Source: Gemmatimonadota bacterium (GTDB lineage: Bacteria > Gemmatimonadota > Gemmatimonadetes > Gemmatimonadales > Gemmatimonadaceae). From it: a stretch of DNA of 26,825 nt. Position numbers and translations under genes: made by a program. Under the pieces are notes generated by a model. It was not told where the DNA came from. It ran no database searches and saw only the letters and a program-made list of their open reading frames with translations. Positions within the stretch are counted from its first letter, which is position 1. Each line of letters begins with the position of its first letter. This document shows positions 154 to 26,306 of this stretch, piece after piece. The DNA is taken from NCBI GenBank assembly GCA_040389905.1, contig JAZJZK010000062.1, positions 1-26,825 on the forward strand, in the 5' to 3' direction.

Positions 154-162
154 TTGACTGTT

Positions 163-249
163 GGATCGGTGGCCGAGTGGTTTAAGGCGCACGCCTGGAA
201 AGTGTGTGTACGTGAAAGCGTACCGTGAGTTCGAATCTCACCCGATCCG
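163..249 (+). tRNA. tRNA-Ser(GGA)
   Basis: Acceptor stem GGATCGG(163-169)/CCGATCC(242-248), G249, anticodon loop CT-GGA-AA (GGA 197-199), long variable arm, GTTCGAATC T-loop; CCA not encoded. Confidence 0.97.
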
Positions 250-303
250 TTGCAGAAGTACCCTCATTGTGTTGATCAACATAGGCTTAGCTCGCTCGCT
301 GTT

Positions 304-340
304 CGGCGCCGTGACTCGCAGAGTCCGGCGCCGTTTTGTT
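304..340 (+). terminator. Intrinsic terminator of the tRNA-Ser pair
   Basis: CGGCGCCG-T-GACTC-GCA-GAGTC-CGGCGCCG hairpin followed by TTTTGTT. Confidence 0.75.
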
Positions 341-521
341 CGGTGCATACGCTACGTGTACGATTGCTCATCGCTAAACGGTCCCGCTCGCGCTTCAGGC
401 ATTGAGCACACACCAGCCTCTTGAATATTGGCGGCACAATCCGCGTACGATTGCCTTCTCAAGTCCCCGAAGCGCCGCGCGGAATTCCAGCACGCCGATT
501 TCTGCACAAGGCAAACGCTTC

Positions 522-705
522 ACCGCAGAGGACCCAGAGGCCATGGGCACCCAGAGCAATCTACGATGCGCCGGACCGCAGAGGTCGCTGAGGACTACGA
601 GAACAGAACCAAACCCCCACCGCCGTTCCGCAGTCCTTTGCGCCCTCTGCGGTCCGGCGCATTGATGAAGGCACGGAAGGCCGAACCCTCTGCGTCCTCT
701 GCGGT
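522..705. repeat. Nested ACCGCAGAGG-type inverted-repeat elements (family A)
   Basis: Outer arms 522-540/687-705 are 18/19 complementary and inner arms 566-596/632-662 are 28/31; same motif as 26171-26306. Confidence 0.85.
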
Positions 706-1038
706 ACGCTTTGCTTTTGCTGTTCGGCAAGCGACAGGCGAGAGCAAACCCGAGGCACCTCGGGCGACGTTGGATCATCGGCCGTGCCATCGGAGAAATG
801 TTGGCCGGCGGAGCGCCACACCGCGAGCCGATACAGGAACGCGCCCAGAGACCAGAACCGTCCCGGCTCCCGCGCCGCGTAGGAGGGGCCAGCCTACAAG
901 CCCGGTTCCTCGCTGAGGACTGTCGTCCACGCGTGCTCATTCCAATTCTGGAATGAAGGGCTGTGGGAGGGTGATCGCGAGCGGCGGGGGGCCGGCTTGC
1001 GCGGGATCACGTCGCGACGCGGAGATGCGTCGGCCACG

Positions 1039-1918
1039 GGCGGGCCGTTATGCGGAAACGCCTCGACCCTCGAAGCCGGCACGGCAACGCTCAATTCGCG
1101 TTGTAGTGCGCTGCACAGTGCCGGGAGGACGATGTTTGACTGAGAAACGGTAGCCGACGGCCCACGGACGCCCGTGCGCATACAACGAACGGCCAAATCA
1201 CCTTCTCGAGCGACAGTGCAACGCGCACAGCCTCGTGTTGGCGGCGCGAGACTGACCGTTCCCAATAAGCGGCCGGCATGTCGCACTTCCCAACTACCCG
1301 TGGGCGAAGCACAGGGGCCAGGTTGCTCGCGCGAGACGACCATGCGCGACGATCACGTCGCCATTCCGAACGCGCGACTCGATGTTCGCGACGCACGACC
1401 ATGCTGGTCATGCATGCGGAGGACCGTTTTGGATGAATGACACGAGTGAATCTCCGGCAAGGGCTGCGTCTGTACGTCGCGAACGCGCTGTCTGCGCAGG
1501 CGAGACAGTGTCATCGTCGCGCGAGTCAACGATTCACAGTGATGATCGAATTACCCACGGTCGCGGCCGACTTCTCCGCGCACATGTTCACATTTCAGTT
1601 GCGAACGCTCTGATTTGCCGGGGGAAGGATGTCGTTTGCAATGCCCGAGTGCAGAATGCCGATGGCTGTGGCCACGTTGCCCCGTCGTCTGTCGCTTTTC
1701 GTCGCCTCCGTGCGCGCGTTGCGCGCGCGAATGCCAGCGTTTGCGGCGCGCGAGTTGTCCTTTCATATGAAAGTGCGCGATTCAGAACCGCTCGCGACGG
1801 GGTGCGCAGCGCCCGCGTCCACAATGCAACCGCCGGTGACGGCCTTGCCTCGCGAGGCATCGAGTTCTCCGGCGTGATGAATCACAATACGCAGTGCGCG
1901 CGTCATTTCACGCAGGGC
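1039..1918. repeat. Degenerate 21-nt-periodic tandem array (~42 units, possibly starting near 913)
   Basis: Cut by hand into 21-nt units (register 1039+21n to 1522, one 19-nt unit, then 1541+21n): T at unit position 11 in 31 of 42 units; conceptual heptads x-x-x-[VILF]-x-x-[AG]. Confidence 0.75.
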
Positions 1919-2299
1919 GGGCTCACCCCACGCGGAGCCAGTGAGAAAGTACCCGGACCGGCGGTGACGGTCCGCTGGTAGACATTCGGCTTCCGCAGTG
2001 GCCGCATCGCGTCACGTGAGCGCTGACTCGGCTCACCCGAACCGTGGCCCGCCGCACGACTTCGTACCGAGAGCTAACGCAGCCCCACACCTGCCTCACG
2101 CGTCCCGCCTGTCAGCACACCAAGGTGGCGCCCCGGGCCACCGGCTACGCACGCGGTGAAACCCAGTGCACCGGCGCCCGTACTCTCTTCTGCGACCATC
2201 GCACCACCTGCGCGCATCCAGCACGCCGGTCGCGCCCGACGTCGGGCTCTTCGTTCCGACCCGCGTGCCAGAGCTGACACGCCAAATCGGGAGCATGAC

Positions 2300-2968
2300 A
2301 TGGATGACCGAAAGAAGCGAGTGCTCGAATCCTGGAGGCGGATCGTCGGCAGCGGTGCATCACTGTCGACTCTCGCGCCGGAAGTTCCGGCCATCCTCGA
2401 GCGGCTCGCGAGCACCGTGGCAGAGATCGACATGTACAAGCAGCAGCAGTTCATGGCCCGAAAGCTCTTGCTTGTAACACACACGCGACGCGCCCTCGAC
2501 CGCATGCGCACGGAGCACATGCTCCCACTCGCTCGTCTCACACGTCCGCTCTTCGTGGGCATGAGCGGCATCGAAGCCGCGATCCGCGTTCCGCACAAGC
2601 GCGCTCCGACCGAAGAAATTCTCGCCGCCGCCGAGGCGATGGTGAAGGCACTGCGGCCACATCGGGAGCTGATTGCGAAGTCGAAGATCGATCCTACCCG
2701 TATCGATTGCATTCGCGATGAAACGCGACTCCTCAAGAAGCGCTTTCGGACGGCCTACGCCGCCTCCGCCGATCGCGGCGCGCCGACTCGACAATTGCCG
2801 GCCCTCTTTGCGTCAGCGCGGATGGATGTGGCCATGCTGGACGCGCTGGTCCGCGCAACGAGCGACGCCGCGCAAGTGTTCCTGTGGAAGCAGCTCTCCC
2901 GCGTACAGAAGCGCCTCGGTCGCCCGCGCCGTAAGCGTGGTACCAACAAGCGCGAGCAGGCCGCCTAG
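2300..2968 (+). CDS. Hypothetical alpha-helical, basic protein (222 aa)
   Basis: ATG 2300 preceded by GGGAG (2289-2293); GC3-biased codons; amphipathic helical sequence ending in KRLGRPRRKR. The longer ORF start at 2156 is judged spurious. Confidence 0.8.
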   Translation: MDDRKKRVLESWRRIVGSGASLSTLAPEVPAILERLASTVAEIDMYKQQQFMARKLLLVTHTRRALDRMRTEHMLPLARLTRPLFVGMSGIEAAIRVPHKRAPTEEILAAAEAMVKALRPHRELIAKSKIDPTRIDCIRDETRLLKKRFRTAYAASADRGAPTRQLPALFASARMDVAMLDALVRATSDAAQVFLWKQLSRVQKRLGRPRRKRGTNKREQAA

Positions 2969-3187
2969 AACTGTCGCGACTCGCAACCGCGGCCACTGTG
3001 ACCGACTCCGTTCGCCCTGGCGTCGTGGCTCACGCGATGGTAGCCTGTCGCCGCCGGCCATGCCCGAACTCGCGTGAGGAGACGCGTGGATCGACCGCGT
3101 CGAGCTCATGGTGCCGAGGTCGGACAAGCGGCCTGACCAGCCTGGCAATTAGACTACGGCGAGCGACCTCCATCCGATCCGTGAACT

Positions 3188-3979
3188 GTGAGTTTTCTCG
3201 AAGGTATTGACCGGCCGGTCGTCGCCCACCGCGGCAACCGCGCACACGCGCCCGAGAACACCATCGAAGCGTTCGAGCGGGCCTTGACCCTCGGACCCGA
3301 TGCGTTGGAGTTCGACGTGCGCCTCTCGCGCGACGGCGTGGCGATGGTCATTCACGACGCTACCGTCGATCGAACGACCAGCGGCGCGGGCGCCGTCGCC
3401 TCGCTGTCGCGCCAGGAACTTCAGTCCTTCGACGCGGGCTGGTCGCACCGCTCCCCGGACGGCGAGCAGAGATTCCGCGAGACAGGCGTCACGATCCCCA
3501 CGCTGGAAGCAACACTCGAAGCCCTCGGCCACGTTCCACTCATCATCGAGGTCAAGGAAGAACGAGCCGTCGCGGAAACAAAGCGCCTGTTGGCGCGTTT
3601 CAACCTGACGGCACGTGTGCTCATCGGGTCGGTGCACCGAAATGTCATGCAGCACTTCTACGGCGGTCCGTACGAGACGTGTGCGTCGATGAAGGATGCG
3701 GCGCTGCTGCTCACTCGCATCGGGTGGCGCCGGACACGGTCACGGCCGCCGTTTTCCGTGCTCTCCATCACGCCGTGGTACGAGGCCGCGGTTCCGTTCC
3801 CCGTGCCTGTCGTCACCCTGTCGCGCATCGCCGCGGACCTCGGCATTCCGACGCACGTGTGGACGATCAACGACCCCGTGCAGGCGAGTCGTCTGTGGCG
3901 CGCCGGGATCTCCGCGATCCTGTCGGACGACATTGAGCCGATCATGCAGGCGCGTGCGGCGGCAGAACGAACGCGCTAG
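3188..3979 (+). CDS. Glycerophosphodiester phosphodiesterase (GDPD, UgpQ/GlpQ family), no signal peptide
   Basis: AHRG...PENT...LEFDV...DG...IHD...DRTT and IEVK motifs, HVWTIN near the C-terminus. Confidence 0.92.
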   Translation: MSFLEGIDRPVVAHRGNRAHAPENTIEAFERALTLGPDALEFDVRLSRDGVAMVIHDATVDRTTSGAGAVASLSRQELQSFDAGWSHRSPDGEQRFRETGVTIPTLEATLEALGHVPLIIEVKEERAVAETKRLLARFNLTARVLIGSVHRNVMQHFYGGPYETCASMKDAALLLTRIGWRRTRSRPPFSVLSITPWYEAAVPFPVPVVTLSRIAADLGIPTHVWTINDPVQASRLWRAGISAILSDDIEPIMQARAAAERTR

Positions 3980-4013
3980 ATCGTCGCCACGCTGATGCTA
4001 CGCTTTTTCACGA

Positions 4014-4041
4014 TGTCACCCTGAGCGAGCTCGGGATGACA
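4014..4041. repeat. Minimal (internally deleted) TGTCA...TGACA palindrome (family B)
   Basis: TGTCACCCTGAGC-GA-GCTCGGGATGACA matches the termini of the copies at 11861-11976 and 13928-14026. Confidence 0.7.
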
Positions 4042-4087
4042 AGTGACAGAGTTCCTTTTCGCGGCGTGCCCGGCGATATTAACCGAC

Positions 4088-4630
4088 ATGCCCGATCGCC
4101 ACTCCATCGTTCTCGACGCTCGTGCCATGGACCGCACCCTTCGTCGCATGGCCGATGAGATCGTCGAGCTCAACGATGGTACCGACGACCTCATCATCGT
4201 GGGAATTCAGCGCCGCGGTGTCCAACTCGCGGCGCGTATCGTATCCTCCATTCGCGACCGCGAAAAGGCGGAGGTCCCGTCCGGCGCGCTCGACATCACG
4301 CTCTATCGCGACGATCTCCAAACGGTCGGGCCGAGACCGGTTGTTGGCCCGACCGACTTGCCATGGGGAATCGACGGCAAGCACGTCGTGATCGTCGACG
4401 ATGTGCTCTACACGGGCCGCACCATCCGGGCCGCGCTCGATGAGCTGGCTGACTTTGGCCGTCCGCGCTGTATCTCGCTCGCGGTATTGATCGATCGCGG
4501 GGGGCGGGAACTGCCGATCCAGCCCGACGTGGTCGGCAAGAAGATCAAGGTCGAGCGGAATCAGCGCGTGGATGTGCACGTGACCGAGCTGGATGAGAAA
4601 GACGCCGTCACCATCGCGGAGCGCGAGTGA
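4088..4630 (+). CDS. pyrR: Bifunctional pyr regulator / uracil phosphoribosyltransferase PyrR
   Basis: [35 protein letters not shown] motifs; directly upstream of pyrB; start moved to ATG 4088. Confidence 0.95.
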
Positions 4631-26170: not shown

Positions 26171-26306
26171 ACCGCAAAGGGCGCAGAGGAGCAGAGGAAC
26201 GCAGAGGAAAAACCACGCTCGTTTTGTCGCCCTGAGCAACGCGAGGGGCCTGGACCTTCAGTTGCAGTTCCTCCGCGTACCTCCGCTCCTCTGCGCCCTC
26301 TGCGGT
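26171..26306. repeat. ACCGCAGAGG-type inverted-repeat element (family A)
   Basis: 39-nt arms 26171-26209/26268-26306, 35/39 complementary, built from GCAGAGG-like units. Confidence 0.9.

Follow-up and report, generated by a model that had tools for sequence, protein, structure and literature searches.

Genomic setting of the array and its adjoining gene

The window, by which we mean the whole stretch of 26,825 nucleotides analyzed here, is contig C62 of the source genome, G000 (5.08 Mb, 85% complete), and it carries a degenerate 21-bp-period array followed by a gene for a basic helical protein, whose named relatives were found in Gemmatimonadaceae assemblies (Table 1). Two tRNA-Ser genes lie on one side of this pair and a GDPD gene on the other. 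The GDPD gene, assigned with Pfam, opens an ordinary housekeeping run that fills window 3188-26825; we take the ORFs after it to be pyrR-pyrB-pyrC, rpsT, scpA/scpB, MoxR-vWA genes, mutL, miaA, bshA, uppP, birA, a type III pantothenate kinase gene, and groES.

Table 1. Features of the window discussed in the text
Feature	Position	Strand	Basis or remarks
tRNA-Ser(GGA)	162..250	+	Left flank of the accessory stretch containing the module; context, outside the module
Degenerate 21-bp-period non-coding array, ~54 units	1109..2236	.	TT core in the distal zone, CAC(G) core in the gene-proximal zone
Putative ECF-sigma-type promoter motif, TGAAAC-N16-CGTA	2157..2182	+	Inside the last array units; predicted start site near 2189-2190
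Shine-Dalgarno-like GGGAG	2289..2293	+	Sequence; 6 nt ahead of ATG
Gene encoding a basic protein of 222 aa (pI 11.3), predicted to be all-helical, from an uncatalogued family	2300..2968	+	Shine-Dalgarno-like sequence and homologue starts

One assembled contig, from the likely source run, spans positions 616-4311 with zero differences and even depth; so far as this shows, the tract is therefore no assembly artifact. The helical-protein gene was absent from the fetched flank in 23 of 23 tRNA-Ser(GGA) loci of the genus, and the module is thus accessory here. pyrR follows the tRNA within 90 nt in 2 of these 23 loci and after 1.35 kb in 1 further locus. Linkage to tRNA genes as a general rule was ruled out, as tRNAs were found at only 1 of 59 loci. 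Several short repeats were noted around the module. Window 242-250, the 3' end of tRNA-Ser(GGA), has a 9-bp match at 3174-3182, just before the GDPD gene, and this pair of matches, which brackets the array and the gene, may have arisen by chance or represent a short att-like duplication. REP-like palindromic elements lie at 522-708 and 26173-26209; short patterns akin to them are present in 84-101 copies genome-wide, and another REP-like pattern in 115. A palindrome at 935-958 has two exact matches in the genome, and the stretch 925-1045 is 79% alike to G000:C51:38523-38640. A near-identical copy of the palindrome precedes an ORF in L052 and L059 that we take to be PadR-like; the palindrome may therefore be an operator.

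A 21-nt period that outlasts unit sequence

The initial annotation had described a ~0.9-kb 21-nt-periodic tract starting at 913. Autocorrelation over 913-1830 gave peaks at lags 21, 42, 63, 84, 105, and 126 (z 3.7-7.0 versus mononucleotide shuffles), so the periodicity is real, but its extent was misjudged: a lag-21 peak is also present in 1830-2300 (z 4.6), none was found in 250-912, and the maximal 21-nt segment (~1.1 kb) is longer than the tract first described. Because that segment begins at 1109, the first ~200 nt of the earlier range are not clearly array. Genes alone give z 3-4 at multiples of 3, and a codon-period-corrected score was therefore used; measured against 25,109 genome windows, the array tract scores 10 SD over their mean. 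The signal holds its strength with increasing lag (0.09 at 21, 42, and 63; 0.10 at 84), and the units are alike to only ~35-45%, which is why TRF reported nothing on the array. Twenty-one base pairs correspond to about two turns of B-DNA, ~71 Å long; A-form RNA does not fit 21.

The succession of a TT-core and a CAC(G)-core zone recurs in L020, L048, L001, L049, L002, and L052, and none of these six arrays gives a BLAST alignment with that of the window. Among 54 genomes of the genus, no DNA relatives of the window array were found beyond matches of 30-45 nt. A CRISPR, guide-RNA array, or type III toxin-antitoxin RNA array was considered and rejected, as there is no constant repeat, orthologous units are colinear, and PADLOC gave no match; Rfam likewise gave no match on the array at gathering score.

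The array is non-coding and apparently keeps its register

Each of the six frames of the window tract contains 6-11 stops. Within one clade of orthologues, the three codon positions have diverged by 0.30/0.28/0.31 in the array versus 0.11/0.06/0.27 in the gene, which places array divergence (0.29-0.30) near the third-codon-position rate of 0.27; indels in the arrays of this clade are single-base only, and two paralogous pairs showed no clear codon bias in their arrays. Indels numbered 0.7 per 100 substitutions in the array versus 7.9 in the 5' UTR, a small comparison of 12 versus 11 events in six non-independent pairs, and in two sequences +1 and -1 indels 91 nt apart bring the phase back. With no codon signature, and with indels per substitution roughly 10-fold below the level of the 5' UTR, the array is non-coding and its register is apparently kept. 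Column shuffling of the arrays raises the number of stops slightly (from 0.58 to 0.83 in the sense frame with fewest stops), and a sense frame free of stops is present in 28 of the 48 best 315-nt windows.

The adjoining gene encodes a member of a large uncatalogued family

The 222-aa protein was correctly called in the initial annotation, as its start residue is shared by homologues and a GGGAG precedes the ATG by 6 nt (Table 1); the C terminus was not, since nine more residues follow the KRLGRPRRKR with which it had been said to end. The 24 close homologues (39-62% identity) lack any Pfam domain, as do all 137 family members searched, and a profile search yielded 3,228 representatives at 50% identity (E ≤ 0.001). 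For 21 members, nothing exceeded the cutoff in NCBIfam, PADLOC, PHROGs, or PDB sequences; PQLLE_fam, at 20.7 bits versus a threshold of 80, was rejected. No longer fused forms were seen among 8,000 candidates, which is weak evidence, and phage, plasmid, and viral collections, queried either with a single paralogue apiece or with alignment A1, gave no match, again weak evidence because these collections are host-biased.

The family is strongly basic, with a median pI of 10.6 and 98.5% of members above 9; among 1,015 control ORFs, the median was 6.9 and 2.4% were over 10.5. Many Arg/Lys columns are conserved across the family, with weak one-face moments (0.03-0.04), and the clade nearest to the window protein has lysine-rich tails. 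An AlphaFold2 model (pLDDT 90, pTM 0.61) is all-helical, with the longest helix predicted at residues 133-186 and ~80 Å in length, close to the ~71 Å of 21 bp of B-DNA (textbook rise); it contains no recognizable DNA-binding fold, HTH included. The best Foldseek E value was 0.22. VIA-align gave a best Z of 9.7 (LemA; rmsd 3.1, 119 aligned) and a Z of 8.1 for Avd, and no fold was assigned because these scores fall in the range of common helical bundles. The protein has no conserved acidic or catalytic residue set. Language-model features place it near unnamed clusters of Bacteroidota and Myxococcota (0.96-0.97); the nearest named cluster is DUF6261 (PF19775; 0.88, 32% of members), which is likewise helical and uncharacterized. 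Membership in DUF6261 was rejected, as there was no match in G000 at E ≤ 10 and none among the 137 family members, and the likeness serves as a lead only.

Array and gene recur together across Gemmatimonadota

An array was counted where the 21-nt score exceeded 0.075, the 99th background percentile, after removal of duplicates, of ten loci with a truncated match or <700 nt upstream (L009, L036, L042, L045, L060-L064, and L089), and of four loci of the unpublished genome G012, which underlies none of the claims made here. Upstream arrays over this threshold were present at 34 of 40 loci in one set and 19 of 25 in another; downstream, there were none at 35 and 24 loci (0 of 59 together). The expectation in the initial annotation that periodic tracts would flank homologues of the protein was borne out: with proteins clustered at 60% identity, 32 of 39 clusters have an upstream array, versus 3 of 400 ordinary gene starts, and 7 of the 39 fall under the threshold. 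Such tracts were also found apart from the family, which was to count against a joint system, and in this respect the picture is mixed, since 8 of the 15 non-coding tracts in G000 have no adjoining family gene.

In 58 of 65 loci, 21 is the period that scores best, and an average over 47 arrays is enriched only at multiples of 21, without a 7- or 10/11-nt sub-period. Array length in the tested lineage is 0.4-1.2 kb. Unit sequences, compared as 48 profiles, vary between loci: unit similarity is 0.61 where protein identity exceeds 60%, 0.41 at 45-60%, and 0.27 at <25%, the last being the level of the reverse-complement control. Shared descent explains this array-protein co-variation equally well. 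The family was present in 35 of 150 genomes of the phylum; these belong to two families within a single order, and a genome can have as many as 11 matches. In G000, six family genes are intact and a further one is a remnant; each has an upstream 21-nt tract, the one on C13 (score 0.067) being below the threshold; paralogues within one genome carry unrelated units. The pairing of array and gene recurs across Gemmatimonadota with constant spacing, whereas the sequence of the repeat and the type of promoter vary.

Promoter-like motifs near the gene-proximal array end

A structured leader of ~170 nt had been proposed just ahead of the gene. This did not hold up: the folding of 2115-2290 is unremarkable against shuffles (z -0.54), no 150-nt window over 951-2300 on either strand falls below z -1.5, and the stretch lies inside the array, keeps the 21-nt phase, and is the array end that carries the promoter-like motif. 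That motif was first spotted by eye in the window and in L020 and counted afterwards. In its strict form (Table 1), it occurs in 4 of 65 loci, namely, the window and L019, L020, and L048, which are the three closest homologues checked, with none antisense and 5 sites in the 5.08-Mb genome. Its two words are the -35 and -10 words described for Bacillus subtilis sigma-W-type ECF promoters (PMC5758882), and by sequence it is probably the gene's promoter. The window array continues ~45 nt beyond the predicted start site.

Counted more broadly, ECF-like motifs are found at 5 of 65 loci and an extended -10 at 12 of 65, all in one clade. Relaxed sigma-54-like motifs are found at 16 of 65 loci versus 1 antisense (expectation, 0.017 per locus), mostly in another family of the same order; the strict form (TTGC) was found at 0 of 44 loci. 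A role as a sigma-54 control region would suit those 16 loci and not the window, and so cannot hold for the arrays in general. The window has no sigma-54-like -24/-12 motif between array and gene, and no sigma-70 consensus promoter was found in 250-3200. Relative to the array, all of the promoter-like motifs sit at its gene-proximal end or past it. Array and motif overlap in the window, L019, L020, and L048; in many other loci, the array ends upstream of the motif, in several of them stopping 100-480 nt short of it. Promoter class (ECF, extended -10, or sigma-54-like) varies while the array persists. Inside the arrays of L049, L055, L052, L050, L057, and L002, ~690 nt before the start, lies a palindromic CATTATA(A/G)T, kept in the eight aligned rows shown, which is a possible internal -10 box.

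Orphan arrays and neighboring genes

Three of the eight gene-less tracts in G000 are copies of gene-linked arrays. Two such array-only copies, C7:484829-485484 and C53:64550-65348, resemble the gene-linked arrays on C6 and C12 at 85% and 87%, respectively, and each has sharp ends and one 21-nt indel. No terminal repeats were seen by eye at the approximate ends of copies. In modules whose arrays are 70-80% alike, the downstream DNA diverges from the stop codon onward; neighbors differ at nearly every module locus, and no neighbor family recurs in 85 flanking ORFs (of 92 picked).

Some modules (L080, L030, L034, and L075) lie beside a Phage_int_SAM_4 integrase gene, an IS integrase core, Uma2 genes, or a PIN gene. 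The G000 arrays at C14:137855-138881 and C7:~484615 have, by eye, pentapeptide-repeat-like genes after them, and at C14 a remnant of the helical gene lies between the two. The word TGTGGA(A/T)AA, which we take to be DnaA-box-like, has 8 of its 16 genome sites at modules or their orphan arrays, namely at C6:117876-117962, C12:194930-195368, C7:102017, C7:485775, and C13:49069.

Relation to known repeat systems

The two-part module is real and linked, and it is apparently undescribed; no published description was found in a search of a mainly open-access collection of papers. KfrA of the IncU plasmid RA3 and IncP-1 plasmid R751 is an HTH protein that represses its own promoter through a repetitive operator of five 9-bp repeats (PMC7783346) and polymerizes into filaments on these repeats (PMC7821693). 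Going by those accounts, it resembles the window module in being alpha-helical and in having its gene after a repeat operator, which for KfrA overlaps the promoter; unlike KfrA, with its N-terminal HTH and five plasmid repeats, the module has ~54 degenerate 21-bp units and a protein model without HTH, and it occurs on chromosomal contigs, with as many as 11 matches in a genome, rather than on a plasmid. KfrA_N (PF11740) had no match in G000 or among the 137 members, and the module is therefore not a KfrA member.

Iterons with Rep, and parC with ParR, also have repeats phased on the DNA helix beside the gene of their reader; these repeats are near-identical, the readers are winged-helix or ribbon-helix-helix proteins, and an origin or NTPase partner is involved. 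The module shares the helix phasing next to a gene, with DnaA-box-like words near one subclade, but near-identical repeats were not found, and there was no sequence-family match to Rep, RHH, or ParB, generic helical-bundle matches only, and no recurring partner in the flanking ORFs. The BrickBuilt minisatellite-MITE of Porphyromonas gingivalis consists of dispersed intergenic tandem 23-nt units with promoter elements (PMC4596501). That architecture is similar to ours; BrickBuilt has, however, a single unit sequence and inverted-repeat ends, with no partner gene family mentioned there, whereas units here are locus specific and accompanied by a linked gene family. The inverted ends and target duplication of a MITE or insertion sequence were not seen here by eye at the approximate ends of copies, and the protein has no conserved acidic or catalytic set.

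What the array may do

A basic, elongated helical protein, a two-turn register that outlasts sequence, and independence from promoter class are together best fitted by cooperative assembly with autorepression, a reading to which we give about an even chance: the protein would coat its own array, with one unit for every two turns of the helix, and cover its promoter, in the manner of KfrA or ParR and unrelated to either. It would bind along the array, as the initial annotation also supposed, doing so cooperatively in steps of 21 bp and polymerizing there, and the bound array would cover and repress the gene's own promoter. Specificity would reside in many weak 4-5-bp cores kept in register on one face of the DNA; because such cores would act through register, the model tolerates substitutions and not indels. 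That the motifs are promoters, and that the protein binds DNA, binds its own array, polymerizes, and regulates itself, we infer from sequence and predicted structure together with the KfrA precedent. Weak per-unit sequence information stands against the binding model. So do the divergence of the array at close to the third-codon-position rate, the 7 clusters under the threshold, the 8 gene-less tracts of G000, the loci where the array stops short of the promoter-like motif, the weak one-face Arg/Lys moments, and the lack of a recognizable DNA-binding fold in the model.

The arrays could instead be cis-regulatory platforms for host factors (activators, sigma-54 enhancer-binding proteins, or nucleoid proteins), with the protein as regulated output only. 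Arrays do lie upstream of promoter-like motifs, sigma-54-like motifs show a clear sense-strand excess, orphan arrays exist, and AraC-family direct-repeat sites with 21-bp periodicity are known (PMC3870299). We nevertheless consider this unlikely: the window and its nearest relatives have an ECF-type motif and another clade an extended -10, unit sequence tracks protein lineage, and a single host reader is improbable because paralogues in one genome carry unrelated units. A second alternative, raised in the initial annotation as well and in our view rather improbable, is that a separate promoter, upstream or antisense, drives transcription of the array, and that the basic protein coats the resulting repetitive, unstructured RNA. 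The protein's Arg-rich composition, the sharp-ended array-only copies, which could be copied transcripts, the CATTATA(A/G)T conserved within one clade's array, and the extension of the window array past the predicted start site would suit such an RNA, but there is neither a folding signal nor an Rfam match at gathering score, 21 suits two turns of B-DNA and not A-form RNA (textbook values), and most of the array is situated upstream of the promoter-like motif of the gene; this reading is weakened by the gene-proximal position of the promoter-like motifs.

A neutral minisatellite that comes and goes next to a mobile orphan gene, as a side effect of cassette copying, would explain the near-neutral substitution rate, young near-identical runs with whole-unit 21-nt indels, orphan copies, and a patchy, multi-copy distribution. 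It seems to us quite doubtful, since unrelated units converge on exactly 21, arrays lie on the upstream side only, and indels are suppressed ~10-fold. The initial annotation also raised a hypervariable or decayed heptad coiled-coil gene. Short heptad-like stretches (1629-1877), the slight deficit of stops, and the stop-free best windows point that way; stops in all six frames, flat codon-position divergence, the lack of clear codon bias in the paralogous pairs, and 1-nt indels between orthologues have already largely refuted it, and we regard it as very improbable. Bolder, and improbable to much the same degree as a repetitive RNA, is a self-spreading cassette without transposase, in which the family's thousands of HTH-less helical proteins would each read the two-turn register of their own diverging arrays in place of a sequence, and a kilobase-long protein-DNA filament would silence the cassette and promote copying of the array to new chromosomal sites; such copying would account for the array-only copies. 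If true, both the class of selfish element and the mode of DNA recognition would be new.

If the protein does assemble along its array, the filament may serve in anchoring, packaging, or cassette spread. A protein coating its own array, if true, would be an undescribed kind of protein-DNA assembly, and here a large family without a catalogue entry keeps, in the tested lineage, the period of its array, not the sequence, as promoter class and neighbors change. If the protein reads its own array, recognition would go by helix phase, with many natural protein-array pairs, some within one genome, so that specificity would be directly testable by swaps and orthogonal DNA scaffolds would be possible; such reading would also account for cryptic repeats in intergenic DNA that escape TRF and annotation pipelines.
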